A stretch of 64,000 bases of DNA from Candidatus Onthoplasma sp. (GTDB lineage Bacteria; Bacillota; Clostridia; Christensenellales; UBA1242): positions 1,345-65,344 of the forward strand of contig JBJETW010000014.1 in assembly GCA_051883515.1 (NCBI GenBank). The letters run 5' to 3'. The notes below the pieces were generated by a model that did not search any database, was not told the DNA's origin, and saw only the letters and a program-made list of their open reading frames with translations. This document shows positions 1 through 57,550 of the stretch, in pieces. Both the position numbers and the translations under genes were made by a program. Positions within the stretch are counted from its first letter, which is position 1. Every line of letters starts with the position of its first letter.

Positions 1-3000
1 AATCGTGATTATTAAATATTGTTCAGTTTTACCTTCTGTTACGTTAATTTTATTGCCAACTCTCGCTATTTCATTTAGTTGTGTTGAACCTAAATAATAA
101 CTACCATATTTATTAAACTCATTCTCATTTATATCTTTTATTATGTCATCCACTTTAATAGAGTGTGCGACTTTGCTTGAGTCTGTCAATATGATATAAT
201 AGCCTTCCCCTCCTTTACGTTCAGTTATCTCTTGAATTCCTTTTGGATTGCTTGCATCATCATATTGATATCCTGACATAAGTTTTTTATAGTAGAAATA
301 TGTTGCATCCATGCTGATTGTGCCATTGACATCATCACGCACATAAGTTCTATCTTCTGAAATTGCAGTGCCAGTTGTGTAAGGATTTTGGAAATATCCA
401 GGATAAACATTTACATAAATATCTTCATGTGAAGTTGAAACGGCATAGGTTTCTTTTAAATAGTCCGTATAATCATATGCGGTGCCAGAACCTGAACCAT
501 TAAATTGATAAACCACATCTTTATAAGTAGTTATTGTTTCTGTTTTTCCGCCGTCTGTTATCTTTGTTTCGGTTTTTTCTTTAACTGAAATATAATTTAT
601 TCCATCAACTTTAGATAAATCTTCTCCATCATGTATAAATTTTGCAACTTTACTTGTAGATTTATCTGTTCCATTTGCTGTGTAATATACTATATTGAAA
701 TATTGATAACCTTGTTTTAATTCTTTCTTTTCTGTATTGGTTAATTTTTTATATTTAAACTTAATTTCCTGTGTCGTTGATTCGCTTTCAACATAGTTGT
801 TGTCGCCAGTTGGAACAATATATTTTTCATTAACAGAATCCCATTGACCTGCAACATAAGTTATTCCATCTTTAGTTGCTTTTAATTCATCTCCAAACTC
901 TGAGAAATCAACAATTTCTTGAGTGATAAATTTATCTTCCTTGTTTGCTCCTGCATAGACATACCATACTCCATTGTCATAGACATATTTTACATAACAC
1001 TTTCCTGTATGACTTCCATTCTTGTCTGTAAAGGTGTAGTTATCCATGTTTGATATTTTTGTTTCATATGGCAAATATGTCTCATATTCCCCATTATTTG
1101 TTTGAACAAAGTAATAATATTCAGAATAATAATTTGATGGTTTAGATTTAGAATATTCTCTATACATCTTTCCATTTATTGTTTTATAAATTGAGAATGG
1201 TGAATCAAGTTTTCCATCTTTGTAATAAACTGCTGTCATATTCATTGTGGTTTGCAATCCATAATTATATCCTTTTGCTGAAATGTAGGTGCTATTGGCA
1301 ATATATAATGCTTTCATTTGTTCCATAATTTCTTGATTTGCACTATTTATATTAATGTCAATCATTGACAAAGCTCCAATTAATAATATTGAACCAATAA
1401 ATATAAATGCAGCACCTCCAGTTGCTATACAAATTAATCCTCCCAAAATGAACGCTCCTATAACCCAGATACTTACATCTTCATTATCTGATTTAATGAA
1501 ATCAGAATCAGTGTTCCAATTTGGCTGATATCCCCATACTTCAAATACCGAACCTGATTTAGGAATTTCAGAAAGATTATTATTAGGCACCACAGTCATA
1601 GTTCCATTATTATAGAATAGTTTGAATGAATAATAAGCTTCGTCCCCTTTATATTTACATCCTAGAACAGGGTTAATCATTAATTCGCTCTTCTTGTTGA
1701 ATATCTTGTTATCATTTAATTTTAACACATAGAGATTATATCTTCCATCTTCTAATATACCTTTATAGGTTTCTCCGTTATCTTCAGTGTCTATAAATAT
1801 ACTATCAATAGATTTATTTTCAGAATCTTCTGTAAATGCACTCATAGGTTTATTTTCTTCGTTAAACATCAACATTGCAATACCATTTCTTGTGTATAAA
1901 TATACTTCTCCTTCAGCTTTCTCGTACACAGTATATTCAATGGTTTCTATCTTTTTGCCATCTGCATCAGTTTGTTGTTTGCAAGCAACATCTTTTACGT
2001 TGATTGCATCGTAAAGCGTTGCGAGCGAATCTCCTGTGGCAACATTTGGTTGAGATATTCTTCTTTGAAGAACTCTGAAACCTGTGTATTCATGAGCCCA
2101 ACCCCAACCTTCTAATTTAGATTCTGATTTTGCTTCTGGAATTAATGGATTTCCATAATATGTTTTTGAAGAACCTGAAATATTGAATTTATCCAAATTT
2201 ACATATGAAGCTTGACCATAAATATAAACAACACCGCTTTCTTTTTCTGATGAGAATTGACTGGTTCCTTCTGCATAGTTTTGGTTTTGAATTGTGTTAA
2301 CTGTAAATGGCTCTTCATGTGTACCTTTGAGAGTGACTGTCACTCCACCTGATTGTTGTGGCGTTGACAACATTCCCGCGAATGCACCAAATTGTGCCCT
2401 TGAACCAACAATTGTTAATCCATAAATTCCACAACCTTCCAATACTGCGCCATCGTTCATGTGAAGTCTTCCAACAAGTCCGCCAACGTAGTAAGAATTT
2501 GCCACATTAAGTGTAATTCCCACTTTTCCTGTTGTCGTGGTGGTTTCGCCATCTTCTGAAGTCGTTTTACTTCCAATTGCCAATGTGTTTTTGTTTGTAG
2601 ATGAAAAGTTTAGTTTTCCGAACAGACCGCCGATGTAGAATCCGCCAAATTCACTTTGAACGTTGATTGAACCTTCCCCAGTCAAATCTTGTGAGTTAAG
2701 TGAAATGGAAACATTAGAATTTGTATCTAAATATCCAACCAATCCACCAACGTTGTATGCGCCACTTATATCATTTGCACCGTAAATTTGTGGAAGACCA
2801 GATTCGTCAAATTGAGAATTTAATTCAGCATAACCGAAAATTGTGCCTGCGTTGATTGCAAGTTGTGCATTTATCGTTGTTCCAACAACGTAGTTTGTTT
2901 GAATCACTGAACTTGCTTGCTGTAAACTGCCTGAATCAATTGTTCCAACAAGTCCACCAAACCCTGATTTTACTTCATCAAACTTAATTTTCGTTGTGTT

Positions 3001-6000
3001 TTCGTTCAAATTTAATATTGTTTTATGGTCTTTGTTCACATTAACCATATAGTTGCTGACTGTGCTTATAACTGCTCCGTCGCTTTCAACTTGTGAACCT
3101 ATGCTTGCGAACACAATGTTGTTATTAACTTTTGCAACATTATTTTCTCCGCTCTTGACTTGTCCTGCCAAGCCACCGATTGATGTTGGAATGAAGTCCG
3201 CAGTCTTATCAGTGTCAACTTTATATGAATACTTATATCTAACACCATTGATTTGTGTTGTTTTTGTAGATTCGCCAACAATGTTGTCTTTGATGGTGAT
3301 TTCGTTTGCATATCCGACCACTCCACCCACATTTGCATTTCCGAAAATTGAACTTGTTCCGCTAATTGCAAAGTTGGAGACAGTGAGCATATATCCGCTT
3401 GCGTATCCAACCACTCCGCCGACATTTATAACTCCGCCGACATTTGCCGTTGTTGCAGTATAGCCTTCAATTGATACTGATGTTCCGTCATATGTGAGAT
3501 CGCTTCCTTTAATTCCGCCTTTGATTGTCACAGTTTTGTCACCGGCGTCAATTGAACCAATCAATCCGCCGACATTTTGATATCCAAACACTAAAGCATC
3601 GTTTGATAATCCACTTATTGTCACAGTGCCAGACACTCCGTTTACGTCAACACATCCGAACACACCGCCCACATTAATTGAGCGAGCATATTTTGTGGTG
3701 CCATCTTCTGATGAAATTGCTTTGTTTGCGTCACTCACTCCATTTTGAGTTATTGCTGCGCTATTTGCAAGGTTGAAGTCTTTGTTAGTTGATTCACCAT
3801 CTTGTATTATTGGGTCCGCACTTGCAATATACTTGCCGGCGACGCCACCGACGTTTTTAACTTCCACAATCGCTGTCTTGTTGCCTGTGATGTTGATTTG
3901 ATTGCCGTTTGTCACAGCAGTTGATGTGCCTGATTCTTTCAACACCCCAAACAATCCACCTATGTTTGTGTATGTGATGCTGACATTTGAATTGCCATCA
4001 AATCCTGTGAATGATATTACTGCGTGATTTGCTCCGCCTAAAAGGTCTTCATAGCCTTTCTTCCACTTTGACGTTGTTGGCGTCACTCCTGAAAGACCAC
4101 CTTGTACATTACCGAACACTCCGCCCACGTTTGTTGTTCCACAAAGTGTGACAATTCCGAGCGTCGTTTCCGTGTCTATGTCTACCATTCCTGAATTGTA
4201 TATTCCTGAAATTCCGCCAAGGTTAGAAATGTTGTTAGCGTAAATTGTGAGAACATTTTTTTGTTTTAACACATTATACTCGTCATCTTTCAAAGATACA
4301 TGGATATCTCCGCCTTGACTTCCTGCAAACAAACCAACGCCCGTGTTCTTACTATCTTCGGCAGAAGTTGTTCCTTTGACAGTGAATGATTTGATATTAG
4401 TGCCAAATGTTGAAGCAGACACCGAACCTGATGCAACTTTTCCAGCCAAAAGTGACACAAAGTGCTCGTCATCACCTGTTGAAGTTGAATAAATTGTTAA
4501 TTTATTTGAACTTTGTGTGATTAAACAAGATATGAAATCGACATTGACATTTATCTTGTCGCCACCTTCAACAACCTTGCCTACTTCTCCAACCAAACCG
4601 CCAAATGTGTTTGTTTTAATGCTATTCCCAACAAAGTTGACAACAATTTTTTGAATTCCGTCTGTAATTATTTTATTTCCGCCGTCGTCAACCTCTGTGT
4701 TGGACAAAACATCTCCGCTTATTCTGCCGACGATTCCACCAAGTATCGCATTTGTTGTTAGAGTATCGCCGTCATCTTCCGCGATTATGTTGATAGTCGT
4801 GTTTAAACTATCACCAAGAATTGAACCACCGCTCATTTCTCCAATAAGTCCACCTGCAACTCCACAGTTAGAGAATTGAACATATAATTCATTTTCTGTT
4901 CCAAAAGTTAATTTTCCGCTGGTCCTGGTCATTGATGAAGCAATAAGTCCTGAGTTGCCTTTTCCTGAAATGGTCAATTGATAAATGTTTGAGCCACTAT
5001 TCTCTCCCAACTTCAAATTTACGACTGTTAAATCTCCTGAAATTGTGTTAACCAATCCGCCAACATTTTCTCCCGCAATTGAAGCCTCTGTTGAATAATT
5101 AACATCGTTGATTGTTGTTATTCCTGAAACAGTTCCTGCAATTGGTCCAGTCGTTTCTGAGAACGAGCCAAGAGTTAAGTGTCCAATATATGCGTTTGAT
5201 ACACTATCGAATAATCCTGTTCCATTTATTCCGCTGATTGTTGCTTTTCCATCTTCCGTGAAATTAAAGTTTGGATTTGACACAAACACGCCTGTGAAGT
5301 TCCAATACGCTGTCCAACTTTCACAACCTTTTATGTCGTAAATTAGAACATAGTTTAAATCTTGATTATTAAGATTGCTAACAAGAGTTCCCAAAACTTG
5401 GAATAAACCTAAATGAGGAATCTTGACTGCAGTTGTGTAATCGGTGCTATCTGATAATAATTGATTGTATCTTGCAGATAATTGCTCAATAAGCTCTTTC
5501 TTTCCATTAATTGTGGAATCTAAGAAATCTCCTTTTCCTGTTTCGTTTTGGTGATTATAATCAATGGTGTCTTTACCTAAATTTAGAATTGGATAACCAA
5601 AGTTTTTGCCAAATAAAGATGTGTTTGTTGTTGAATTTTCATAAACATAGTGCCAATTTCCAACCAAACCGCTTGTGCCGTCAACTTGCATTAATGCTTT
5701 TGTTTCAACTGTTGTAAGTCGTCTGTCTAATTCTATTTTTTCATTGTTTGCATATTGGTCGATATAGCAATTTTCGTAAGAAACTGAATCATCTTCTCCA
5801 CCAATTCCGCCCAAAATTGAATTTTTGCCTAGATTGGTTATAACTCCAGCATTGTAGCAGTTATACAAATATGTTATTGAGTTTGCGACAGCAAATCCAA
5901 CAATTCCGCCTGCAGTGTTGCTAGAATTGTTTATATATCCAGTGAAGAAACATGAAACAATATTTCCATTGCTGTTTTGTCCGACAATTCCGCCAAGAGT

Positions 6001-9000
6001 TTGGTTTGTTGACAAAATTTCTGCTGAAGAATATGAACTGTGAACAAGACCACTGTTCAGTCCAACAACGAGTCCAACCGCACTTTCCGATGTATTAATT
6101 GTTAAGCCATGACCTTGAACAGAGCAGTTGAATATCATTCCTTGGTTTTCGCTCGCAACAAGACCATCAGATGAGATAGTTGATCCATCAGCTAGTTGCA
6201 CGTGAATGTTTGAAACAACTGAGTGTTTGTTAATTGTTTTAACCAATGGTGAAGATACAATTATGTCAGTTTCATTTCCGATTATCATTCCATTGAGAGC
6301 AACAAGTTTATCAGATGTTGATAACAAATAATATGTGTAATTTCCGCTAGTTTCCCAAGATGTTGTATCATTAGATATAGAAATAGGGTTTAAACTTGTT
6401 CCTAATGTGTAGTCATAATTTCCAGCAGAGCCTCCAACAGCTGACATGATTTCATATGTTCTCATTGCTTGCAACATTGTTGCCAAATATGGAACATTGC
6501 TTGTCACGCTCCACAACTCTGAATTGTCTGAAAGGTTTTCCTTCATCGCGTTGTTTGATGAGAAGAAATTTCCTGAGTTTATATTTGTGCCAAATGTATC
6601 AGTTGCAAGTGAAACATCAACTGAGTAGAAGACATTTATAACATTGCATTCGCTATTTTCTTCAGTTGTTCCATCACCAACGAGTGCGTTGATTTCGTTT
6701 TCGCTCATTGTGTTTGCTGAAATTGAGTCTTGAATCAAACTTGAAGTTGAAATTATGTTTTCTGCGTTTATTGTTCTTGTTGATTTTCCAACCAAGCCAC
6801 CAGCATACACAATTAATGATTCTGATGCGTTAAATGGAATAATTCGACCTGAGGTGACTGCGTCGTTTATTGTCAAAGTGCCAGTGTTATGTCCAACAAA
6901 TCCGCCCGCATAAACTTGTGTGGCCACAGTTGAACCAACCGTCATAGCTACATTTGAAACAACTTCATTTAAGTTTGCAGTTCCGCTTGTTGTCGCAATC
7001 ACACCGCCAGCATAAACCGCAATTAATTTTTCATTTTCGTTTGTTCCTTCAACCGTGTTAATTTCACCAGTGAACAAGCATTGTGTCATGTTAATTCCCT
7101 TTGCATTGCCCACACCGCCAGACACCATTATTGTGTTTGCATCAAGTGCGGTTGTGTCAATGTTGGTTTTTGCATTGGTTGACCTGATATATTTGTCTTC
7201 TGCTTGAATTTCTCCGATGAGACCACCAATCTTAATTGAATTTGAAGCAGTTTGATTTCCACCTTGATCTGTTGTTTTTGTATTCAACGTTCCATCAAGT
7301 GTTATGTCTGCCAACACGTCTGAACTTGACACAGATGTGCTATCGTTATATCCCATCAAACCACCAATGTAGGCATTTGCTGTTGTGTCGTTGAATGTGA
7401 CATTCATTTTTATTGAATGAGAAGCGTCAGCTCCGACTTTGATTGATGAAATTGCTCCGTTTGTAATTTTTCCGATTGCTCCGCCAATGTAAGCCGATTC
7501 ACAAGCGCCAACTTCAACATTGAATTCAGCATTTTGCGATGTTGAACCGACAAGAGAAGATGAAATTGTCATGCTTCTGCCTTCTTCTGCTTCCGCATTT
7601 CCAATCAATCCAGCGCAGAATACATCGCCAGTATTTGCCAAGTTTGCATTTACTGTGCCAGTGAATTTTGCATCAGTTATGTTGACACCAGTTGCATTGC
7701 AAATAAGTCCCGCAAATGATTTAATTGTTTTGTTTGTTAAATCAAGAACCGCGCTTTCGTTATTGTCAATATTTCCGTTATTGATTTGCACGCTAACTGC
7801 TGAAATTTCTGTTCCAGTGGCGTTTGGAGTTAACAATCCGATTTCGAGATTGTCAGATTGAGGAGTTATGCTCGTATATTCAAAGATAAGATTTGAAACA
7901 ATTGCATTTTCTCCAATTGACCTAAAGAATCCCGAACCTGTTCCACCTGAAGCAGTTGGTTTCAAAACAATGTTTGAAATTTTTGCTGGTTGTTTCTTTG
8001 TTGCTGAAAGTTTTTCGCCACGAATTGTTCCTGTGAAGTTAATATCTAAGACATAATTTTCATAGGTTCCTTTTAACACTATATCATTATCAATGACATA
8101 ATTCCCATTTGGGTTGGCACGAATGTATGCAAAATCCGACTCTTCCTTTATATGGATTTCGTTTTTATTACTTTCAGTCAAAAGCAATGGGAAATATTTA
8201 AGGTTGTCAAAACTCCAATATCCAACCACTTGCCATGACAAGAATATTTCGTTGAATAAATTATATTGTTCGCTGATATTGCTTGCTGAGACGTCGTATA
8301 AAGTTTGTAAACTTCTAGTTTTTAAATTGATTTCGTTCGAATTTACAACTTTTTCTCCATCGTAGGCATATGTTCCGACATAAACTTGTGTTAAAGCGTT
8401 GTCTGAAATTGTTTTGATATAATTGTCTGTTGCGTCTTTGTAGTCCGCACTTAGATAATCAATTGTTGTTGTGCTATTCACTTTCAAAGCGTTTTTGTTT
8501 AACAACAATGTTGAGAATGTGAATGAAACACTTGTGTGTTTTTCTTCAGTTGTGCCAAGTTTTGCAACTGCGATGTTGTTATATACTGAAATTTCCTCAT
8601 TTCTTGCTGGACTTGTTTGTTTTATGCCATATGCTGAACCGATGAGACCACCAACATTTTGCATATTGTTGTTAAGGTTAACAAATGGCACCGCATATGA
8701 ATATGTGATTGAAGATGCGACTGAAACACCGACAAGTCCACCGACTGTCACACCATTTGCTAAACTTGCTTTGCTATAAGACGCGCTGATTGAACCGCCG
8801 ATGTTAACTCCAACAAGTCCACCAGTGTATCCTTTTGAAGAAAGCAAGTTGAGATTATATTCTTCACTTGTCAAAGTTGATGAATCTGAGCCGGTCAAAA
8901 TGTATTCTTTCAAGAAATTGTCATATTTTTGACTGTCAGTATATCCTTCTTCGTCTTGTTCAATTTCGTCAACTGTCACTTGAGAAGCTGTTATTGCTCC

Positions 9001-12000
9001 CAAAGACACACCAACCAATCCGGCAGATGCTGACAAACCTTGAATTCTGTCTGTTGCGCCGAAATAATATTTTAATCTTTCACTCTTTACATTTTCTCCA
9101 ATATATCCAGCGACACCACCCGCATGACAAGCCAAAATGTTAGCCTGTTGAGTTGTTGAGTCGTCGTTGATTGTTAACTTGGTCATTTCGTCACCATTGA
9201 TTGTGATGTCTGACAAGTTATATGTTTCATTATTCCTATTCTTTATGTCAACAACACCTGCAAGTCCACCGGCAAATGATAATGTTGAAATATAGTCTGT
9301 TGTTTCACCTTCTTCAAAATATTTCGTGCCTTTTGATTTATAATCATCAGCGCTGTAGTACATATTTGTACTTTGACTGCCAGCATTTACGCTGATATTT
9401 GAAGTGATGTTTTTAACAACGCTCTTGCCTGTGATAATTCCGGCAAGTCCACCAACAATGTTGTTTCCGTTGATGACTGTTCCCGAACCATTTAAGTTGA
9501 CATTTATGATAACTGAGTTGTCAATTTGCCCTGCAAGTCCACCAGAGAATTTTGCAAGACTTGTTGAGAATGTTCCGCTTTCAAATTCCAAAGTGATATT
9601 TTTTATGTATGAATTTTGAATTTTTGAGAACAATCCGACTGAATATCCTCTTTCGCTGTCACCAGCTGACAAATAAATGTTGGAAATTTTCAATCCGTTT
9701 CCATCGAAACTTGAAATTTCATTGCTATATTGACTTCCAAATGTGTAATTAAGTTTTGTGTTTATTGAAGTTGAACTGAAATCAATGTTATCAATAAGTT
9801 TGAAATATCCGCTGATATTTTTTATTCCCCCATCAGTTCCAGTCAAAATGTTATTAAATTCTGTGTCGTCTCGAATGATGAATGGGTTTGTTTCTTTTCC
9901 TTGCGCATATTTAACCGCATTGGTGTAAACATATTTTCCATTTTTGTCTTGTTCTTTGAAATATCTATATGAAATTGCAATTTGATTTGCACTTGTGATT
10001 TCTGGCAACAATTGTCTGTTGTTTTTCACGTCATAATAAGACCAAACACCTTGATTTCTTTCCACTTCTGAAGTTGAAAGCACAAACACAAATCCGTTGA
10101 GATTTTCGCTGTCTTGGAATGCGGTCAAATTCAACTCAATTGCTTGTGGAAGACCAGAATCAATAAGCGTCATTCCGTTTGAAAGGAAATATGAATTTTC
10201 AATCTTTCCGTTAGAGTTGAGAGTTGTTCCTTCTTTTCCAACGAATGGTTGTTGCGTTTCATCAGCGTTTGAAACCACATTGAATGTGCAAGCCGCGTAG
10301 CAGTTTTCAATTGTTGCTCCGTTTTGATTGTTGAACACAAATCCAGCGCTATTTGCAGAAATTGTGCAAAGTTCAGTGTTGGCAAAGGCGTTGCTGATTG
10401 TTCCGCTGTTTATGTATGCAAATCCTGCAACTGAACCATTACCCTTGTTTTCAATTCTTATGTCGTGAGTTTTTGAGTTAGTTGAATCGTTGTCTGTGAA
10501 ATATTCGCTGTTTGAATCGTGAGATTTTGTTTCACCTTTTACATATGAGTTTGTGATAACTCCAGAGTTGGTTGCAACAAATCCCGCTGTTCTGTTCTTT
10601 GATGTTGAATTTGAATAGTTCGCAATACCAGTGTTTATCACAAATGAACTTGAAATTGTTCCACTGTTTGTTCCAACAAATCCACCCACTGCTGATTGGA
10701 ATCTGTTTGCGCTCAATCCTGTTGCTGTTTCATTTCCAACAACAAACACTAATCCTGAAAGATTGATTGTGGTTTCAGTTTCATATCCTGAATTTACAAG
10801 CACTTTTGTATATTCACTTCTTCCAACGCGTGAGTTTGTTATTGTTCCACGGTTTGTTCCAACAAGCCCACCAACCGTCACTGAAATGTCAGTCGTTTGT
10901 TTTGTCAAAATCTTAATTTCTCTTGTCGTTGCATATGAATTTATAACATCGCAGTTATAAATCAACGCACCGTTGTTTGCAATCAATCCACCAAACGTGA
11001 ATGATGTTGCATCAACTTGAGTTAAATCTAGAGTGTCAAATTTTCCATAATCTACAATTATATTCTTTAAGATTGTGTTTTTTGTCACTGAATTATCTGC
11101 TGTTGCTTCTTCAGCATTGTCGACAAGCAATTGTGTGTAAGTGTCAAGGTTTGCAAACAATCCATATTCAGTTGCTGGGACGCTTGTTCCATTGCTTGTG
11201 ATTGTATTTTTAAATTTTCCAATTGTTATTGTTCTGTTGTTTCCGTCGAAACTTCCAATCTTAACATTTATTGGTTCAACACCATCTGGACAAATGTCAT
11301 TTGTGTTGATGTCGGCCAAAAGAATATAATGTCCGTTCTCAACAAGTCTGGTTGTTCCGTCTGGATTGTACATGTCAGATGCTGTTCTAATTGGAGTTGC
11401 ATTTTCTTCTGTTCCAAGTTCAACGATATTAAGAGTGAATTGAGCATTCTTTGGAGCGAGTTTATCGTTTTCTTCTTTGTAGAACTCAACTTTAACAATT
11501 CTATTATCGTCTAAATAATAATTAAAGAACAATTTGAAATTGATTTGTTTGTTGTAAACTTCATTTCCTATGATTGCAAGTGAGTTGTTGCTCCATTTCA
11601 AATCGAATGATGTGTTGGTGTCTATAAAACTCTTTTCTACACCATTGTCGATATATGAGAACAAACCTTTAAATGCATCTAAATCGAACACATCGTCAGT
11701 TGATGTAAACGATTTTATTAAATCTAAATAAATGCTAGATGAGATATCGTCTGTTTTGTCTGTTGCAAACGACAATTCAATTTCTTTTGCCCCGCCAATT
11801 TCAAGGTTGAACAAGTCTCCATAAAGATGTGCAATCTTTACATCATTGATAATATACTCAGCTGGATAGAATGTAAGCGACTTGTTTTCTGAGTTTTTTA
11901 TGCTTCCATCTCTAGTCACCAAATACATTTCTGCATTTATCTTGAAAGCACAAGGAATATCTTTGTCTACTGTGAAGCTTACGCCCAAAGTATATGCACC

Positions 12001-15000
12001 AGTTGTTGCATTATATGTTGCCGAATTATCAGTGAAAATGTTGACATAATCATAAACATTTTCTGTTTGAGAAGAATCAATCCATTCTGCTGTTATCACT
12101 GGATTTTTGTCAAATTGATATCCGAACAATTCAAGTTCAATGCGATTTCCATATGTTCCTTTTTGAACCATATAGCCATCTTCGAATTCTCTTGAAGATG
12201 CCACATAATTCATGTTGACTTCTGGCAAATATTGAGTGATTAAATTCTTTACATATGGGGATGCTTGGATAGTATTTTCCCCATCACTTGTTTCAACATT
12301 CAATGTTGCAGAAATTGTCTTTTCCACTCCACCAAATCTATCAGTCACTGCGTGAACATACAAAATTCCGTCGTAGTAGAATTCTTCGTTTTCGTCCATT
12401 CCTGAAATTAATTGAAGTTGAAGTGTATGATTTTCGTCTTGAACATAAGACAAACTTGCAGGAAGTGTTTCGAATCTGTTTGTTTTTTCATTATAGAAGA
12501 ATTGTGTGAATTGTAAATATACTTCATTGTTGAGACTTGGCACTGAAATTGTTGAACTTGTAAGCGTTGCTTTTGTCACATTTGCATACTCAGGTTCAAT
12601 GTACACAAGCATCAAGCTTCCATTTGAACTTGGGTCAAACACAACCGATTCAATTGTGTCTGCATTGATGAAGTTTCTCGTGTCTGAAACAAGACTAAAT
12701 TCTTTCACTGGGTAGTTTTCAACACGCATTGTTGAAATTTTGCTTGTTGGCTTGATTGTGAAAGTTTTTGTCGCTTGAAGTTGTGAATTGAGTGGCGAAA
12801 CGATAATGTCAAACGACATTTCGTGTGTAATATATTGATAATTTCTTCCTTCTTTCAATCCAATTGTTATGTTATAGTCATAACCATAAGATTGTTTTGT
12901 TGATTTTGCATCAATATCAAACAACTCAATCAATCTGCAGTTGTTGATATCTTTTAATTTTTCAAGTTGCTCTTCACCGCTTGTGCAGTATAAAGAAATT
13001 TGAATTCCGTCTCTTGATGAAACTTCTTCTTCAATTGTATTTTCGCTGTCAATAGGTTGCCACAATGAAGTTGTTGTTGTCCCATCAACTTCGCTTGTAT
13101 AATTCGTTGTAAGTTTTAAATCAAGTGAAATCACTCCACCAGAAGCAATTTCATCGTGGTTGCTTGAAGTTGTAAAGTCAATTGCTGTTGCTCCCTTTTT
13201 GAGAGTTAAAGTCAAAGTTGTTTTTGCAATTTCAGCCTGATTGAATACGCCTTCCTTATATCTTAAAATAACATTAAACTTAACTTCTTCATTTTCATTA
13301 TAAGTTGCGCTGTCACGAAGATTTAAAATGAACGCATTGTTGCCAACTTGCACATCGAACAAATTTGTTCCATCTTCGCTAACAACATATTTCACTTGTG
13401 AACTTGTCAAAGCGCTGTCAAAAACTGAATTGAAAGTGACATTTCCGCTTTTGTTCAAAGCAGTGATATTAATTTGTTTGCTATATGAAGCGTAGAAATC
13501 TACAACATAGTCAGTTTCGTCGCCATATCCCACGCCCGAACCTGTCAAAACAAGTTCGCTAGCACCTGGTTGAACATAGAAAGCGAAGTAAACTTCTTTT
13601 CCGCTAAACACTGAACGCGCTCTAACAATAATTGGCGTATCTCCGCTTGCACGCAAGAATGTAATTGTTTTGAAAGATTTTCCGCTTTCGTCAACTTTTG
13701 TTCCAAGTTTTGCGTAGTTTGTTCCATATCCAATAATTGAATATTCAAGTCCGGATTGAGATTTTTCTGGAACAAGACTCAAATCAATAAGTCCGTTTGG
13801 ATTATTTGAATCTATTGAATCGTTGATAAGTTTGTAAGTGTTGAATTCGTCTAGAACACTCACATAGTCAATGTTATAGAAATAGTTTACAACCACTGTT
13901 TCTGTGATTTCATAGTCTTTTAATGACTCATATTCGCCAACACCAGACACATATGTTGCCTCAATTGTTCCAATATATTTTTCGTTTAATTTTGCACTAA
14001 TTTCCGTTGGAGCAATAATTTGAAGTGGGTTTCCGCTTTCATTATCAAGAAGATATGGCAAATTGTATGTTGTATCTGTTCCTGAATTACTAATCTTAAC
14101 AACATTATATCCTGTTTCCGTTCCCCAAATTGAAGAAGATGTTTTATATTCACTATCTTCTGCTAGTGAATCAATGTCTGGAATTGAATCGTTAGTTCCA
14201 TTTAATATCACAGCATATGTTGCATTTGAAGTGTAGCCAGCGCCTGGAGTATTATTTTTTACAACATTGCCTATAAAGTATGAATTCTCAACACTCTTGT
14301 TTGATGTTAAATAAATACTGCTTGAGTCTGACGTTGCCCATAAGTTTGCTCTAACAAATGAATTTGATGTTGTTCCAGTGTCTGAAAGCACCAAACCTAC
14401 CACATCGCCCAAACCAATCAATGTCATTCCTTCGTAAGTTGTCCCCGAAGCATATGTCAAGAAACTTTCCACGCTTGAGTATGAAATTGTGCCTGAATTT
14501 TTATATGCTATTCCTGCAACATTATTTCCTTTGATTGTTCCAGTTGTTTCAATTGGAGTCGCACCAATTGTAAATTCTGATTTTGCAGAAATAACTTTCG
14601 CGTATGAAATTGTTCTGCTGTTTGTGTTAACAATTCCCGCAACATCTTTATTATCTGCAGTCAAATCCAATCCAAGAATAGCTACATTGTTTATTGCATT
14701 GCTATTGTTATAAACAACACCTGCAAGATTTGTGTTTGATTTTATTGTCCCACCGACTAAAATGTTTTCAATTGTTCCAGAGTTTTGCCCAACCACGCCA
14801 GCAACAGTGGTCGTGTCAGCGTCAGTTGCTTCTATTGTGAGATTTGCAAACACATCGTAATTTATATTTGTGAGGTTAGTTCTATCATATGTTCCTATGA
14901 TTGTCCCTGAGTTTACTCCAGCAACTAGACCAACATTGACTTTTGTTGCATTGAGAGTCAAATCATCAATTTGAACTGAGCAACCTTCAATTGTTCCGCT

Positions 15001-18000
15001 GTTCGTTCCAGCAATAACACCAAAGTTTATTGTTGCACTTGATGATTTAATAGTCGTTGAATTGCCAACAATTTCAACTGAACAATTTTTAATTGTTCCA
15101 GCATTTTTTCCGGCAATAACACCAAAATCAGCCGATGTTGCTCCTGTTTCTTTACTATTTAGTGTTGCAACCAAATTCAAATTGTAAATTTTAGCGTTTG
15201 TTCCTAATTTTGAAAATAATCCTGCTGTTGAACTTCCGGTGTCAGCAAATCCAACTGTAAATGTGATTGTTTTGTTGTTTCCGTTGAAATCTCCATTGAA
15301 AGCATTGTCAGCAGCCAACATGTTAAAGCCGTCCGCACTTGTAATAGACAAATCTTTCATTAAAATATATTTGTAATTGCCATCAATAAGTTTAAGTTCT
15401 TCCACGCTAGAAATTGTGTACGCTTGATTTATTCCGTCACAAATTGCAATTCCAACCGCATAGAAATTTGAGTATGAGACTTCGCCGTTTTCCAAAGTGG
15501 TTTTTCCGTTGTATGAATCTTTTGCGCACACCAAAAGACGGAAATATCCACCATCTTGTCCGGCATGTGTGATAACATTAAATGTGTATCTTGCTCCAAC
15601 CTTTGTCATATTCACAGTGATTCTGCTTGAATTTGCTGGAATATCTTCATAGATTGTTTCAGTTGCCGTTTCATAAACTTCTTGCAAAACGAATGTCAAG
15701 TCGTCAAAATGTGTTTTTGAAGCGTCGTTGAAATTAGCTTCAATTAAGAACGATTTTTTAACTTCTTCATTTTCTGCTTTTCCAAGATAAGAAAGGTTCA
15801 TTGTATAACTTGCGTCAGAATTTAAATCAAGTTGAGACTTGTCTGACAAAGTAAATCCGTTTGATTTTTCAATTTCCAAAACATTGATTGAAACGCTATC
15901 GCTAATACCACTTTCTAAATCAAATTCTGTTGCTTGCGCCGTCACAATGAAATTTGACACATTTGGTTGCTCATTGAGTTTAAGTGTGTAAGACCACTTG
16001 TTATCCCCAACTTTGCTCGCTTCTGATAATTTCTCATTTAAATCATTTGTCAATTTAATTCCTGTTATTCCAGTTATTTCACCATTTGTGCCAGAATAAG
16101 TTATTGATTGAGTTCCGCCTGTTGTTGTGACTGTGAAAACATTTTCACTGCTTTCATAGAGAAGTGAATTGACATAGCACATTGCTTTCTTTTCAGCAGT
16201 AAGCGTTATACTTTGAATTGGTTGATAAATTCCAATTTCAAAATCTACTTCTTGTGTTCCACTTGTTAAAGTGTTGCTCTCATATTTGTAATATGTTGCT
16301 TTTGCAGTAAGTTTTTGCGATTCATTGCCCGCAGTTGTTGCCAAAAGTGAAAATTCATTGTCAAAAGAAATAATATTTGCTTTTCCTGTTGGTGCTCCAG
16401 TTATTTCCAATGATTGAATTGCGCCTGTTGTGTCGTTTTTAGCGACAACACTGAATGAATAAACCTTGTTTGAAATAGGAAGAGCAAAATTTTGTTTTCC
16501 ATTTTCTATTTCCAATTCTTTTACTCTTGTGTCAGTTGTGTTGATTGACAAAGTTCCCAAATCGTCCGCTGTTGAAATTGATTTCACAGTAAATTGAGAA
16601 TTAAGTCCGAGATTTCCGTCTCCAACAACAACAGAGATTGTGCTAACACTTTGATTTTCTCCACCGACAATTGGCAATAATAATTTATTGTCTGTTAATG
16701 ACGCTCCGTTTGTTATTGCTGTTTGCAAATCAATTTCTTGTTTGCCGTTATTGAAAGTTGCGTCACCATCAATTTTAAATTTAACTGTTGAAGTATCAAG
16801 CGTTCCATTGTAAGAAAGAGTCAATTCAACATTTGTTGCTTTTCCACTTGCAACAAGAACATCGTTATTAACAAAAATGTTCTGCGTTTCGCCCGTGCTA
16901 GGAACGTTAACTTTGTTGTTTAATGTCACTTTGTTGTTAAATTGTATTGTTGTTGACACATAAGTTGCGCCAACTGGAATTCCATTAAACGAATCTGGCA
17001 CAGATTTTGTTTGGAATGTGATGTTTGATGTTGTTGAATCATCTTTAAATCTTACATAAATTGTTGAATTCCTTGCAATTTCACTATTATTTGAAAGTTT
17101 CATTCCGTTTTGTATAACTTCTAAAATATTTGTATCATAAACAAGAATTACTTTTTCACCTTTAGCGTTGTTTACATCAAAAGGAGCCACATCAACACGA
17201 ACCGCTTTCCCTTGATATGTGTCCACTGTTGAATAGATATCTGTTTCAAAATTAATGTTGGCATCAGAAGATGATTTAAGTCCGTCCGCTTCAACCAAAA
17301 CTTGTGTAGGCAAAGTGTGACGCTCAACTGCCTTTTCGATGGAATATTGTGGCAATTGTTCGCCCAAAACCTGCAAACCGCTCAGTTGATACACAACCTT
17401 AAATTGAATTTTTGAATTAACACCCTCTTCAAGTTTGATGGTGAATTTATTTTTTTCTTTTTCAACTGTTAACTCATTGATTTCATCACTAGAAGAATTT
17501 TCGAATTCGCCATTTTCATTTTTAATTAGCAAATCAAAGTTAAATTTTATTATGTCTCCATCTTGATTATATACGCCAACATTATAAATGGACTTAAAAT
17601 CCCCACTTATATTCGCATTAATTGTTGTCTGATTGTAAATTTCGCTGTTGGCGTAAAGTTTTATTGTTCCGTCAGAAATTGTTGTTTCATTTCCGTCATA
17701 TTTCAAAACCAAACTTGCAGTTTGTTTCTTTTCTACTATGTAAACATAGAAACTGGTTGAAAGGTCGTCATTTTCCGTTTCATTTGCGCTTTCTGACAAA
17801 AATTTTGAAGTTGCTTTTATTTTAACCGCATAATTAGTTGACCCTAAATTGAAATTATCACCAACTATAAGATTATTTCCATCAAGCGTGATTTTCCCTA
17901 TTTCAGAATTGTTTTCTGTAAAATTTCCGTCTGAATCAAACGCACCAATAGCCATAATTCCATAATTTACGCCGAATTGATTTGTTTCAAATCCAGGAAC

Positions 18001-18561: not shown

Positions 18562-18650
18562 AACCCCTCACTTTAACATGTGCAAACATTTCATTTTTTT
18601 TCGTCATTTTAATTTTTATTTCGCACACGTAAAATTCTTCAATTAATTTT

Positions 18651-18679: not shown

Positions 18680-19027
18680 AAAAAACTCATATTATAACAA
18701 AAAAATTATCAATCAAAAAATAATTTGTTATTTATGTGTTTTCATTTTTTAGAACTTTAAAAAATTTTTTAAAAATTTAGTTTTTAAATCGGTTTTTGCA
18801 TTATTTTTTTATATTTTTTAACATTTTTTTATTTTTTCGTTTTTTTAAGATTATGTCTTTGCTTTGATTTAACTAATTGCGATATATCTCATTTTGATAA
18901 ATTAGCCATTGGTTTTTGTTTCACAATATAACAACAAAAATTTCATATGGTCAAAATATAAAACAATTTGTCTTTTTTTGTCATAAAAGATTTTTTCTTG
19001 CCATATTTTAAAGCAAGGAGACATGAT

Positions 19028-19339
19028 ATGCATTTATTAGACCAAAACGAAAGAGTTATTCACTTTGCAAATTATATTGTAGAAAACAACACAACAATAA
19101 GGGCAACAGCGCGACACTTCGGCATTCCAAAAAGCACAGTACATAACGAACTAAGCACAAAATTAAAATTCATAAACTATCATCTTTACTTAGAAGTTAA
19201 AAAAATTTTGGAAAACAACTTCAAAATCAAGCACATTCACGGCGGACAATCAACAAAATTAAAATATGAAAAACTAAAAATGCTCATAAACCAAAACGAC
19301 AAAGCTGAGATTGAGTCGGAATCATACTCCCCAAATTAA
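19028..19339 (+). CDS. spoIIID: Stage III sporulation protein D (SpoIIID), HTH transcription regulator
   Basis: ERVIHFANYIVENNTTIRATARHFGIPKSTVHNELSTKL...HIHGGQSTKLKY aligns along its length with B. subtilis SpoIIID (ERTIKIGKYIVETKKTVRVIAKEFGVSKSTVHKDLTERL...HLRGGEATKLKY). I chose the ATG at 19028 because AAGGAG lies 7 nt upstream; the track ORF begins at an upstream TTG (18968). Confidence 0.9.
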   Translation: MHLLDQNERVIHFANYIVENNTTIRATARHFGIPKSTVHNELSTKLKFINYHLYLEVKKILENNFKIKHIHGGQSTKLKYEKLKMLINQNDKAEIESESYSPN

Positions 19340-19497: not shown

Positions 19498-20211
19498 TTA
19501 AATTTTTTCTATATAAATTTTTATTTCCATTTTGAAATTATTTACATTTAAATATCTCTCACCTGTTCCTGAAAGATAAACTTTTTCAAACAAATTAATT
19601 GTAGAGTGCCCCGTCACATTTGTAATATGATACTTACCTTCGCCGTCCAATGTTGCATCAATTTCTTCTGGAAGGAGTTTTACATCTTCCAATCTATTTC
19701 CACTTACATAGCAATCCACCGTAAATGATATGTTATATTCACCTTCTTCAAGAAGTCTCAAATCGATGTCAATCACATATATACGAGCGCCCGCAATTTC
19801 ACTTGTCGACCTAAACTCTGTCATCGGTTCCGAGTTGACCAGACTTTCTGCTCTGCAATCGCCAGAAATAGAAATAAAACAATTTGGATTAGGTTGGTAA
19901 ATTTTTAAAACGATAACCGCAGACCCTAAAATCAACATAAGCAAAATAATCAACAATATGATGATAAAAATATTTCTATTCCTTTTGGTCGCGTTCTGCT
20001 TTATTCTTTCTTCATTAAGTTTGTCTATATCATTAACTATATTAACACTTTTTTCTATTTCTTTTTCTTTGTTTGTCGCTTGGTTTGTCTCTTTTGATTT
20101 CCCAAGTTTTCTTATTTTGCTAGATTGTGTGTTTTTAGGTGTTGAAGATGAATTTTCGTTATTATAATCCAACGAGAAATCATTAGTTGTAAATTTATTG
20201 TACTTATTCAT
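19498..20211 (-). CDS. Bitopic membrane protein (about 80-aa K/N-rich cytoplasmic N-terminus, one TM helix, about 130-aa beta-rich ectodomain); last gene of the sipW operon
   Basis: ORF track translation has a hydrophobic stretch IFIIILLIILLMLILGSAVIVL after KRNRN (positive-inside). Strong RBS GGAGGTG lies upstream, with an 11-nt gap to the preceding gene. Confidence 0.75.
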   Translation of the reverse strand: MNKYNKFTTNDFSLDYNNENSSSTPKNTQSSKIRKLGKSKETNQATNKEKEIEKSVNIVNDIDKLNEERIKQNATKRNRNIFIIILLIILLMLILGSAVIVLKIYQPNPNCFISISGDCRAESLVNSEPMTEFRSTSEIAGARIYVIDIDLRLLEEGEYNISFTVDCYVSGNRLEDVKLLPEEIDATLDGEGKYHITNVTGHSTINLFEKVYLSGTGERYLNVNNFKMEIKIYIEKI

Positions 20212-20222
20212 GTCGCCACCTC

Positions 20223-20846
20223 CTACACAAAGTCTTCAAGCGAACTTTCAACGGTTAATACCAATTTTAAAGTTTCTCCGCCAGAAAGTGCTAAATCAAG
20301 AAAACTTGACATAGGAATTGTAAAGCCTTCAAACATTTGTGCAACAAAGCCAGCCTCATCAACAGCCGAATCCAACTTTACATTTGTACCTGATGAGTTT
20401 TGATAAACAAAATATTCTTGTCCTTCAACATTGACACCGTTAAATCCATTTTTAGAACCTGTTGGAGCAATGTTTGCAACGTTAATTGGAATTTTTTTGT
20501 CACCATTCCCTGAAACTGCATATAATTCGAGCTTATATCTAAAATATAAAATAGCTGTTCCCGCATCTTTATTTCTAACTTGAACAGATAGTGAGTTCTG
20601 CACATCTGGATATATCTTTCCAGAAAAATTAATGTAATTTTCGTTTGATAATGTAATTGTCTCTGCGTCGACAACTTGTTCAATGCTAGCGTTTAAATCA
20701 GACACAACAACATCAAATTGCAATGTGGAAATGTTCTTTTGTGTAAACCATGAATTTGAATTATTTATTAACGGCATAAAAAGACATATCAATAAAATCA
20801 TTATTGACAACAAAATTATTGAGTTGCTTTTTATTTTTTTCTTCAT
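20223..20846 (-). CDS. TasA/camelysin-like secreted protein 2 (207 aa) with SipW-cognate-like signal peptide
   Basis: Start moved to the ATG at 20846, with GGAG 5 nt upstream and 1 nt after the TAA of the upstream gene. N-terminus is MKKKIKSNSIILLSIMILLICLFMPLINNSNSWFTQKN. C-terminal strand is LKLVLTVESS. The track ORF start at 20930 lies inside the upstream gene. Confidence 0.65.
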   Translation of the reverse strand: MKKKIKSNSIILLSIMILLICLFMPLINNSNSWFTQKNISTLQFDVVVSDLNASIEQVVDAETITLSNENYINFSGKIYPDVQNSLSVQVRNKDAGTAILYFRYKLELYAVSGNGDKKIPINVANIAPTGSKNGFNGVNVEGQEYFVYQNSSGTNVKLDSAVDEAGFVAQMFEGFTIPMSSFLDLALSGGETLKLVLTVESSLEDFV

Positions 20847-20847
20847 C

Positions 20848-21525
20848 TTAACTCCAAGAACTGCAATATCCTCTGCTTGAACCTTCAAATACTGACAAAT
20901 ATGCTTGATTGCTTGCTTGTACAGCATCAAATGATAGATATAATCTATATGACGAATTTAACATGGCAAAAGGGACATCAGATTTGAGTTTCATTTTTGT
21001 GAAACAACCGACATCGCCAGTCACTTTATTTTCAATAAAATATGTGACAAGACCAGATTCCGAAACGCTTTTTACGACACCACTTGAACTTTCATCAATC
21101 ACGCTATCTCCAAAAAGAATGTCAAAATACTCTCCATAATTAACGCTTTTGTCTTCAACGCCATTATTAATCAAATAAGCATCAATCCAAAACCTTATAT
21201 AAACATCAGTGGTTCCAGACTCTTTTTGAAAACCAATTAAAGACAATGGGTCAGTATCTGTTGAACTTTCATAAAGTGAAAATTCACTTCCTCGAGAAAT
21301 TGGGTCTAGAGTGTAAAGTTGCATTTCTGTTGTTGAATCAATTGTCTTTGTTGTCGATGTGCTATCTGTTAATAAATAATTTACTTTTATTGAACCCAAT
21401 GTGATTTCACTTTGAACTTTTTGCTTGAATGTGAAATATGAATATGTTATTCCGACTGCTAAAATAGTCACAATAAATAACACAAAAATTGCAATATAAT
21501 TAAATTTTTTGCCAGTTTTTTTCAT
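20848..21525 (-). CDS. TasA/camelysin-like secreted protein 1 (225 aa) with SipW-cognate-like signal peptide
   Basis: MKKTGKKFNYIAIFVLFIVTILAVGITYSYFTFKQKVQSEITLGSIKVN resembles TasA ...GGGTWAAFNDIKSKDATFASGTLDL. The C-terminal YRLYLSFDAVQASNQ resembles TasA IKLQFSFEATQWN. RBS is AAAGGAGGTG. Confidence 0.7.
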   Translation of the reverse strand: MKKTGKKFNYIAIFVLFIVTILAVGITYSYFTFKQKVQSEITLGSIKVNYLLTDSTSTTKTIDSTTEMQLYTLDPISRGSEFSLYESSTDTDPLSLIGFQKESGTTDVYIRFWIDAYLINNGVEDKSVNYGEYFDILFGDSVIDESSSGVVKSVSESGLVTYFIENKVTGDVGCFTKMKLKSDVPFAMLNSSYRLYLSFDAVQASNQAYLSVFEGSSRGYCSSWS

Positions 21526-21539
21526 ATTTCACCTCCTTT

Positions 21540-57426: not shown

Positions 57427-57550
57427 AAATTCTCCGTGTAAAATAAATGTTAACACTAAAAAAATTAAAAAAATGCCAAGAAAAATTAAAAAAATAAGCA
57501 AAAACACACTATTTTTGATAAATTTTGTAAATTTTTTTAATTAATTAAAT

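Follow-up and report, generated by a model that had tools for sequence, protein, structure and literature searches.

A putative hairpin membrane anchor near the C-terminus of a giant surface lipoprotein from Candidatus Onthoplasma sp.

The window analysed here, a stretch of 64,000 nucleotides from Candidatus Onthoplasma sp., encodes a predicted bacterial surface lipoprotein of about 6,200 residues in full. Close to its C-terminus the protein contains a hydrophobic segment of 34 residues, which is probably a minimal helical hairpin that forms a second membrane anchor. The Tyr-rich tail behind this segment is most likely located outside the cell, as is the ectodomain in front of it. The initial annotation had considered double anchoring of such a protein unusual. 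This needs some qualification, as sequence comparison shows the architecture throughout a family with members in at least 35 Christensenellales species, although that family is uncharacterised.

The giant ORF is opened by an upstream TGA at 18570 and has its first ATG at 18561. From there it is open on the minus strand up to window position 1, which amounts to at least 6,187 amino acids. The N-terminus, MKKKLISIFATMFLVFSCVFLGAC (…FLGAC), shows a basic n-region, a hydrophobic h-region and a lipobox with Cys24 when inspected by eye. In the translation, the lipoprotein signal peptide (residues 1–23, MKKKLISIFATMFLVFSCVFLGA; 18493..18561, minus strand) is one of only two hydrophobic segments, and it is directly followed by the codon for the lipobox cysteine (Cys24, 18492..18490, minus strand). 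As lipobox pattern we applied [LVI][ASTVIG][GAS]C, a PROSITE-type rule with which LGAC of the giant lipoprotein agrees. Neither Lgt nor LspA was found among the scanned ORFs of the window.

The ectodomain (residues 25–5697; 1471..18489, minus strand) contains no other hydrophobic stretch, and from about residue 1800 on it runs colinear with homologous giant ORFs. Three ectodomain pieces of 710–800 amino acids matched the GLUG motif (Pfam PF07581) with 21.1, 22.6 and 23.6 bits (cut-off 20.5), and a fourth piece did so with a weaker score. The protein resembles other GLUG-motif proteins in these above-threshold matches, but GLUG is only a short repeat of the ectodomain and is uninformative on the hairpin and the tail, neither of which belongs to a family. 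Internal repeats were almost absent from the giant lipoprotein by BLAST, and the two giant lipoproteins of the window showed no similarity to each other. No relatives of the N-terminal 800 amino acids were found in the protein set. The homologous loci that we retrieved end approximately 10 kb upstream of the match, so that they cover no N-termini.

Translation around the hydrophobic segment in the frame of the giant ORF reads DSDFIKSDNEDVS-IWVIGAFILGGLICIATGGAAFIFIGSILLIGAL-SMIDININSANQEIMEQMKALY. The initial annotation had reported a long hydrophobic segment about 5,700 residues into the protein, at 1470..1372, with at least 450 residues behind it. The segment was indeed found at residues 5698–5731 and 456 residues follow within the window; its start at 1470 was correct, but the 34-residue peptide extends to 1369, a slip of 3 nt. 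It is contained in a run of 39 residues devoid of D, E, K, R, N, Q, H, P and Y, as against an average of 17.4 and a maximum of no more than 32 for the longest such run in 2,000 shuffles of the protein; the segment is far outside chance expectation. Summed Hessa insertion free energies, calculated over 15 and 19 residues, were negative only for the signal peptide and the C-terminal segment, and over 21 residues or more only the latter retained a negative value. It scored about -1.4 to -2.2 kcal/mol over lengths of 15–34 residues, versus more than +2 for the next best segment of the protein.

Within the segment, 16 residues, a TGG triplet and 15 residues can be distinguished, all encoded on the minus strand. 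The first hydrophobic half (residues 5698–5713, IWVIGAFILGGLICIA; 1423..1470) has a 15-mer Hessa value of -2.23 and aligns with TM1 of the homologues, and the second half (residues 5717–5731, AAFIFIGSILLIGAL; 1369..1413) has a value of -2.04 and aligns with their TM2. Both glycines of the intervening turn (residues 5714–5716; 1414..1422), G5715 and G5716 (G728 and G729 of the 1200-aa query), are invariant in alignment A3. The single-sequence AlphaFold2 (AF2) model, of low confidence, breaks the helix at TGG. The 25 amino acids after the segment contain 1 K/R versus 2 D/E and are thus not positively charged. With 15–16 residues each, or 17–18 when uncharged neighbours are included, the halves are short for two full bilayer crossings. 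In the window protein the segment may thus instead be a hairpin of the re-entrant type, or one long helix that lies tilted.

In 35 species-level genomes, all of uncultured gut Christensenellales (Ca. Onthoplasma, Christensenella, "Clostridia bacterium"), giant ORFs match the last ~4,400 residues of the protein colinearly, and colinear BLAST matches of the ectodomain were obtained at up to 34 loci. Upstream of the hairpin lies a conserved membrane-proximal module with many invariant A3 columns (residues about 5391–5548, FGAFAGML…GTHEEPFTVNTIQNQNY…GWAHEYTGF…EYTVYEK; 1918..2391, minus strand). In this module GTHEEPFTVNTIQNQNY represents residues 5413–5429, and the family motifs NTI[EQ]NxNY and AQAxYxNxD are both present. 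With phmmer eight relatives were detected at E values of 1e-67 to 1e-30. Two patterns derived from it, NTI[EQ]N[SQG]NY and [AG]QA[YST]Y[VIM]N[LQM]D, were used to search the species-representative genomes and recovered 35 loci, which were confirmed by tblastn and nearly all of which are continuous ORFs of more than 4,700 amino acids. Contigs with homologues include CALWOU010000001.1, DWVI01000002.1 and CAKVNK010000002.1.

Between the module and the hairpin, 22 residues before the hydrophobic segment, lies a GSVFEV motif (residues 5670–5675; 1537..1554, minus strand), which reads GS[IVL]F[EN]V in most homologues and of which G683, F686 and V688 are invariant in A3. A superficial likeness of GS[IVL]FEV, 22 amino acids before the membrane, to the SEA-type autoproteolysis site (G/S[VI]VV, the slash marking the cut) is the sole link to such self-cleavage; a Pfam search for a SEA module gave no SEA match. 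An exhaustive phmmer and profile search showed that the relatives keep the order GLUG region, membrane-proximal module, GSxFEV, hydrophobic block and tail.

In every readable relative the hydrophobic block is present at the equivalent position and consists of two hydrophobic halves. We parsed 31 blocks (30 loci and the window); L015 (16 aa) was mis-parsed, and the others measured 41–90 amino acids (median 58). The halves are joined by a tight Gly/Pro turn in 14 members, including the window protein, and by a Lys-rich, acid-poor loop in 17. These 17 have at least five K/R between the halves (L003 has 14 K/R and 1 D/E), and the loops reach about 47 amino acids. In total the blocks contain 163 K/R versus 29 D/E, and the 25 amino acids preceding them 77 K/R versus 111 D/E. 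By eye, about three-quarters of the family blocks listed have a GG turn and the rest Gly or Pro. The window protein and the family blocks thus have two hydrophobic lobes around turn-promoting or charged residues in common. One homologue, P0016, has no hairpin at all; a soluble linker connects its membrane-proximal module directly to the tail.

The Tyr-rich C-terminal domain (residues 5732–6187; 1..1368, minus strand) is cut by the window edge. It contains 11.9% Tyr, with Thr, Lys and Asn also abundant, in keeping with the Tyr/Asn/Lys/Thr-rich region that the initial annotation had followed to that edge; R and L account for 1.2% and 3.1%, respectively. A profile of 26 homologous tails matched it with 130.9 bits (HMM positions 3–513 of 646, tail residues 13–449). 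Because the match ends at 513 of 646, some 130–150 residues probably lie beyond the window, and the predicted tail measures about 590 amino acids in all. A profile of the last 140 amino acids of the homologues had no match in the window tail. A MAFFT alignment that brought the last residues of the window to the true C-terminus of the homologues was rejected, as this C-terminal profile is absent and the full-tail profile stops at 513 of 646. The tails of the homologues, with invariant Y, P and G columns such as YPxxFxNPY, are 575–825 amino acids long.

A Pfam search with the tail and six homologues, an NCBIfam search and a PDB profile search yielded nothing relevant; the only PDB match, 8bgm, labelled 'Toxin', was non-significant (E 0.47). 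The tail alone had no match in a word-indexed set of 5.8 billion proteins, tail peptides were not found in GTDB genomes, and the exact DNA from the window start was not found in JGI metagenomes. AlphaFold2 pLDDT values were 33.4 for the single sequence and 42.7 with a 13-sequence alignment, too low for a hairpin or tail fold, and Foldseek of the better model against the PDB returned noise only (best E 0.07, TM < 0.1). As far as these comparisons reach, the tail and the membrane-proximal module appear to be without a Pfam, NCBIfam or PDB counterpart.

With a membrane-type segment and an N-terminal lipobox in one continuous ORF, the natural reading is a ~5,670-aa ectodomain that is anchored close to its two ends, and this part of the initial annotation is upheld. 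The loops of the homologues are Lys-rich and, by the positive-inside rule, the hairpin loop is expected to be cytoplasmic, which would place ectodomain and tail both outside. P0016 joins module and tail without a hairpin, suggesting that both modules belong on one side of the membrane. The composition of the tail points to the same side: its extracellular-versus-cytoplasmic log-odds is +0.103 bit per residue, within the 0.008–0.18 of ectodomain chunks and outside the range of all 14 cytoplasmic window proteins (-0.035 to -0.18), these proteins being the score's own training set. Thus the same-side placement of the hairpin flanks is deduced from the 17 K-rich loops, P0016 and tail composition. 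In the window protein the hairpin lacks a Lys-rich loop, and its in/out assignment therefore rests on homology; given the homology between the window tail and that of the family (130.9 bits), the topology should be shared. Of the options raised by the initial annotation, the family hairpin evidence favours a second extracellular domain.

The initial annotation had also envisaged a transmembrane helix with a possibly cytoplasmic tail. A single long helix, N-out and C-in, would leave the Tyr-rich tail inside, as in the staphylococcal Ebh-type giants, and 34 unbroken hydrophobic residues can indeed cross the bilayer once, long or tilted, the 19–23-residue stretches having negative summed Hessa free energies. 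Near-C-terminal anchors followed by intracellular regions also occur in other giant proteins (bioRxiv 10.1101/2023.11.21.568195). Several observations nevertheless make this reading fairly unlikely: in homologues a K-rich loop or a G/P turn separates two hydrophobic halves, the central GG does not vary in A3, the C-flank carries no net positive charge, the composition of the tail is ectodomain-like with its low R and L content, and P0016 retains both flanking modules without the hairpin. One transmembrane helix followed by a positive cytoplasmic region is thus not what C-flank charge, homologue halves and tail composition suggest. Processing of one chain into two products, by signal peptidase after the second half (ALS/M, cut at the slash) or within the GSVFEV region, is quite unlikely in our view. 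It would give a lipid-anchored giant fragment and a separate tail or membrane stub, and is compatible with the hairpin topology. Small residues occupy -3 and -1 after TM2, so that ALS/M fits the -3/-1 rule, many homologues have A/S/Q-rich stretches there, and GS[IVL]FEV is strongly conserved near the membrane. However, the motif behind TM2 is not conserved in sequence, and the conserved cytoplasmic Lys loop better suits a retained anchor than a cleaved signal. A gene for a SipW-like S26 signal peptidase (23975..24652), a weak sub-cut-off Pfam match, lies ~5.4 kb upstream of the giant gene start, but is more simply tied to the adjoining TasA-like genes.

It is very unlikely that the hairpin, hidden in a secreted fold, serves for insertion into the membrane of a target, as toxin translocation domains do. 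Large clostridial toxins have Tyr-rich, beta-rich regions after hydrophobic helices, of which the Tyr-rich tail after the hairpin is reminiscent, although this is a lead only, and large exported-type domains are present on both sides of the hairpin. The lipobox argues instead for retention on the producing cell, the Lys-rich, acid-poor loops of up to about 47 amino acids fit the positive-inside rule for the producer membrane, and no toxin or enzymatic domains were detected by Pfam and NCBIfam searches, 8bgm being non-significant. An internal start at Met5733, which would yield the tail as a protein of its own in addition to or in place of the fusion, is in our view extremely improbable. A Shine-Dalgarno-like GGAG (1377..1374) does precede the ATG of Met5733 (1365..1363) by 8 nt just after the hairpin (1363..1377, minus strand); among the 59 in-frame ATGs no other carries such a motif, and its position coincides with the end of the segment. 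By a rough estimate rather than a computation, however, ~0.5–1 such site is expected by chance in an ORF of this length, the GGAG derives from the Gly-Ala codons of TM2, and at 30 homologous loci no start preceded by an SD was found near the end of the block, so that the site is most likely due to chance. Nor is the C-terminal part a separate gene, as had been considered: the ORF contains no stop codon, and the tail is fused in frame in all 27 homologous ORFs that reach their stop.

Ebh and Embp of Staphylococcus are giant Sec-exported surface proteins with a membrane segment near the C-terminus that is not of the LPXTG type. The window protein likewise is a giant exported Gram-positive surface protein with a near-C-terminal membrane segment and no LPXTG, but no sequence similarity to Ebh/Embp was detected. 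Ebh has a YSIRK-type signal, no lipobox and one transmembrane segment followed by a positively charged cytoplasmic repeat region, whereas in the window protein a lipobox and a two-lobed hairpin are combined with a large Tyr-rich domain, non-basic and probably extracellular. In sortase-anchored LPXTG proteins a hydrophobic segment near the C-terminus is followed by a short basic tail. These also combine an N-terminal signal with such a segment in a large Gram-positive surface protein, but in the window protein the preceding residues read …VWGYQPNWNTDSDFIKSDNEDVS, without LPXTG, and at least 456 non-basic residues follow.

Dockerin-type giants of Omnitrophota have TM anchors near the C-terminus and then predicted intracellular regions with SecA-like domains (bioRxiv 10.1101/2023.11.21.568195). 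They share with the window protein a long TM-free N-terminal part, anchors near the C-terminus and a giant, presumably adhesive, extracellular region; they differ in phylum and domains, the tail of the window protein having no known domain and its predicted location being outside. The bilobal domain of chlamydial Inc proteins, an accepted membrane hairpin, comprises 40–60 amino acids with two helices of 15–32 residues and a turn-rich loop of 3–22 residues (PMC3048545). The structural principle is the same, with flanks on one membrane side (as predicted for the window protein), and the block of the window protein (34–41 aa) is at or below the lower size limit. Inc proteins are, in contrast, small type-III-secreted effectors in the host vacuole membrane, unrelated in sequence, size, secretion route and organism.

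If the hairpin reading is correct, the N-terminal lipoprotein signal would direct Sec export and Cys24 would be lipidated. The ~5,670 residues of GLUG-containing ectodomain would be threaded outward until the first hydrophobic half (5698–5713) stops transfer; the chain would reverse at T5714-G-G5716 on the cytoplasmic face, and the second half (5717–5731) would restart translocation, so that the Tyr-rich tail is exported too. The result would be an ectodomain fastened to the membrane close to each of its ends. The membrane-proximal module and the tail, which are the best conserved of the C-terminal modules, would then be adjacent at the outer membrane surface, where one may speculate that they form the base of a fibre, or a wall-contacting or assembly domain. 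An unlikely further prospect is that the C-terminal cassette (module, GSxFEV, hairpin with or without a cytoplasmic, Lys-rich amphipathic loop, and tail) is more than a passive anchor, namely an undescribed, self-contained device by which monoderm gut bacteria mount megadalton fibres on their membrane. Such a device might aid ectodomain export or assembly, bind the wall, or provide load-dependent breakage or signalling via self-cleavage at the GS motif.

Uncultured gut Firmicutes commonly have giant surface proteins, almost none of which is, to our knowledge, understood. Gene callers and assemblies often split the genes for such proteins. How the cell holds a chain of ~6,000 residues is a question of practical interest. 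The present analysis defines a searchable, conserved C-terminal cassette of module, hairpin and tail for Christensenellales of human and animal guts, where at least 35 species have it. In the predicted topology the protein is held by lipid at one end and by a membrane hairpin near the opposite end, with its two large domains facing outward. Should this prove right, it would offer a handle for annotating such genes and for designing surface-display or localisation experiments.

The minus-strand reading frame containing 1470..1369 was open on translation from a TGA at 18570 to position 1 of the window. From its first ATG, at 18561, it encodes a protein of at least 6,187 residues, whose N-terminal stretch, MKKKLISIFATMFLVFSCVFLGAC, has the features of a typical lipoprotein signal; the established lipobox rule points to Cys24 as the lipobox cysteine. 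As the initial annotation had stated, a hydrophobic segment lies about 5,700 residues into this lipoprotein with at least 450 residues behind it; it comprises residues 5698-5731 and is followed by 456 residues inside the window. The quoted peptide and its flanks matched the translation exactly and the start at 1470 was correct, but the peptide has 34 residues, so that it ends at 1369 and not at 1372. No overlooked stop makes 1..1370 a separate gene, since the frame is open to position 1.

The protein contains only two hydrophobic segments, residues 5698-5731 and the signal peptide, with Kyte-Doolittle 19-mer means of 2.39 and 2.38 (next best 1.5). The summed Hessa free energy was negative for both at 15 and 19 residues, and at 21 residues or more only for 5698-5731. 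The segment lies in a run of 39 residues free of charged or strongly polar side chains, a length that none of 2,000 shuffles reached (mean 17.4, maximum 32). The interior of the segment is uneven: two strongly hydrophobic 15-mers, IWVIGAFILGGLICI (-2.23) and AAFIFIGSILLIGAL (-2.04), are separated by A-T-G-G, and Gly accounts for 7 of the 34 residues. On either side the sequence is acidic or neutral (1 K/R versus 6 D/E in the 25 residues before, 1 versus 2 in the 25 after).

The Tyr-rich tail behind the segment, used alone as a query, gave no match in the word-indexed protein set, GTDB genomes or JGI contigs. When the final 1,200 residues served as query, exhaustive phmmer matched 21 proteins, with their parts in a common order: GLUG-type repeats, a conserved membrane-proximal module (…FGGLxGMLKV…GxHxYPFTVNTIENSNY…AQAYYxNxDxFNIS…GWAKEYTGF…YTVYE…), a GS[IVL]FEV motif, a hydrophobic block and a conserved Tyr-rich tail (…QNxGYLSSxYSRExxY…YYSxxRPxDYY…YxYxNGxYY…GYxYMxxAYYTAxG…YPxSFxNPY…YYYxxGGY…NKYLxNxxxxLYTRYKY…TTYFVESVKVTLGGG…). 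A profile search added further members, with GLUG as the sole Pfam domain among them, and scanning species-representative genomes for a pattern yielded 35 loci that were confirmed. The genome bins that contain them, metagenome-assembled or uncultured in every case, derive from the gut of sheep, chickens, rabbits and humans and are labelled Candidatus Onthoplasma (placed in Christensenellales), Christensenella/Christensenellaceae or 'Clostridia bacterium', with one labelled Bacilli. Nearly every locus has a single uninterrupted ORF, longer than 4,700 aa, that runs off the 5' end of the retrieved DNA. Colinearity between the window protein and these ORFs extends from about residue 1,800 to 6,150, and this colinearity and conservation identify the relatives as orthologous giant proteins. 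Conservation is highest at residues 2,400-3,300 (window 8700..11400, minus strand; about 50% identity), and the N-terminal 800 aa (16162..18561, minus strand) had no homologue detectable anywhere by homology search; the lipid-anchored end is thus the variable end. In three metagenome contigs (L001, L002 and L003) frameshifts break the gene into two or more ORFs, the two long ones lying in different reading frames in L001 (12..9896 and 9917..17557) and L002 (154..10008 and 9788..14743); these breaks may reflect assembly errors or real pseudogenisation. Such splits explain why the family is represented in protein databases by C-terminal fragments only.

Each of the 27 homologous ORFs that extend to a stop codon carries the tail fused in frame, at 575-825 aa, and no homologue carried the C-terminal part as a separate gene. 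With the frame open here and in the relatives, a separate tail gene was excluded. A profile from 26 tails matched the window tail with 130.9 bits (positions 3-513 of 646 aligned to tail residues 13-449), and one built from the C-terminal 140 residues of the family had no match in the window. Judged from these alignments, about 130-150 residues would lie beyond position 1, giving a tail of probably about 590 aa and a full-length protein of probably about 6,300 aa. No relatives of the tail were found in Pfam, NCBIfam or PDB; AlphaFold2 models were beta-rich with low confidence (pLDDT 33.4 and 42.7), and a fold search with such a model returned only noise. The G + C content of 1..2000, the tail-coding end, was 30.3%, against 35-40% in the remainder of the ORF, consistent with an amino-acid composition that differs there, Tyr, Lys and Asn being abundant.

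Blocks were parsed from 30 loci and the window (31 in total; L015 was mis-parsed at 16 aa). The remaining blocks are 41-90 aa long (median 58), that of the window being the shortest. Every block has two hydrophobic halves, so that the single transmembrane helix of the initial annotation gives way to a putative hairpin. Judged by eye, GG closes the first half in about three-quarters of the blocks listed, and Gly or Pro takes that place in the others; in the family alignment the glycines matching G5715 and G5716 are invariant. The halves are joined in 17 members by a loop that has at least 5 K/R and is nearly devoid of acidic residues (e.g. KAGGKMALAVGMAAIKAQAKKMGAKLVTKTIFKFGKKAAFKFIKRLVK and KMGAKAFAKAFAKAFLKGALKNLIK), and in 14, including the window protein, by a tight turn such as TGG, SGG, PG or GP. 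Summed over the blocks, K/R number 163 versus 29 D/E, against 77 versus 111 in the preceding flanks. Many loops are periodic in Lys/Ala/Phe/Leu, e.g. KAFAKAFAKAFLKGALKNLIK (L003, L012-L014, L017, L020, L033, L034 and others), and resemble amphipathic helices, which would rest on the membrane's cytoplasmic face; the window protein has no loop of this type. Accepted chlamydial Inc hairpins have helices of 15-32 aa and loops of 3-22 aa (PMC3048545), and the window block (16+3+15) is at their lower limit. For turn propensity the usual reference is Monné et al. 1999 (as cited in PMC4517110).

The surroundings are those of an ordinary Firmicute chromosome (SpoIIID, SpoIIE, NusG, ribosomal protein L1, DnaB/DnaI-like proteins, TilS, tRNA synthetases). 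A SpoIIID homologue (18968..19339, plus strand; Pfam 91 bits) lies divergently just upstream of the giant gene and SpoIIE at 55144..57507 (minus), so that sporulation regulators are present in this Christensenellales-related lineage. A second giant lipoprotein (24666..33425, minus; 2,919 aa, lipobox LAGC, GLUG motif near the C-terminal end) lacks both a hydrophobic hairpin and a Tyr-rich tail, and BLAST showed no similarity between it and the 6,187-aa protein. The minus-strand genes between the two, at 19498..24652, may form a SipW-dependent fibre locus. Among their products are an S26 signal peptidase resembling SipW (23975..24652; its Pfam match is weak and below cut-off), three proteins whose N-terminal signal anchors are of TasA/camelysin style (21540..23978, 20848..21525 and 20223..20930) and a 237-aa protein with a central transmembrane segment (19498..20211). 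A BspA-type leucine-rich-repeat protein (51694..52782, minus; Pfam LRR_5, 72.9 bits) is a probable further surface protein of the region.

Under the positive-inside rule a stop-transfer helix with a cytoplasmic C-side normally has basic residues after it. Read with this rule, the Lys-rich, acid-poor loops would be cytoplasmic; the chain would enter and then leave the membrane, and the tail would lie on the same side as the ectodomain (residues 25-5697). One phmmer relative (P0016, 1,059 aa) lacks the block, a charged soluble linker (…DKAEKYLDKGKYDKAQKFYSEADDL…) joining module to tail, which makes sense only if both share one compartment. As softer evidence, the tail composition (R 1.2%, L 3.1%, C 0.3%; T, N, S and Y high) resembles that of the ectodomain and the 2,919-aa lipoprotein, unlike that of the window's cytoplasmic proteins (+0.103 bit/residue versus -0.035 to -0.18 for the cytoplasmic set, which also served as reference). 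A single span with a cytoplasmic tail is a possible but unlikely reading for this particular short block; it conflicts with the two 15-mers, the C-flank that is not basic, the two-halved blocks with Lys-rich loops or tight turns across the family, and the ectodomain-like tail.

Translation of the tail from an internal start was also considered, as a GGAG stands 8 nt before the ATG of Met5733 (1363..1377, minus strand), directly after the segment, the only one of 59 in-frame ATGs preceded by a Shine-Dalgarno-like sequence. None of 30 homologous loci has an equivalent, and we therefore treat it as chance. Proteolytic processing might occur after the second half (ALS|M there conforms to the -3/-1 rule) or at GSxFEV, the conserved motif, and would be compatible with a hairpin; a weakly scoring SipW-like peptidase gene lies nearby, but its simpler link is to the neighbouring TasA-like genes. 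A hairpin that is buried and then inserts into target membranes is argued against by the lipobox and the Lys-rich loops. LPXTG anchoring was excluded (no motif, long tail).

Near-C-terminal membrane anchors are known on giant surface proteins such as Ebh/Embp, whose sequence beyond the anchor is intracellular. The Dockerin-type giant proteins of Omnitrophota likewise combine such an anchor with an intracellular part (bioRxiv 10.1101/2023.11.21.568195). The window protein resembles both in its anchor position and differs in its tail, which would be extracellular. The family is absent from the Pfam, NCBIfam and PDB libraries used. To our knowledge, no characterised protein has all four features together: a lipobox at the N-terminus, an ectodomain of some 5,700 aa, anchoring by a hairpin, and a large, conserved C-terminal domain outside the cell. 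From its sequence we rate the protein as a membrane-anchored giant surface protein, a kind already known. The architecture is clear, family-wide and testable, with an out-in-out topology that we infer for the block, in gut bacteria that are abundant but uncultured.
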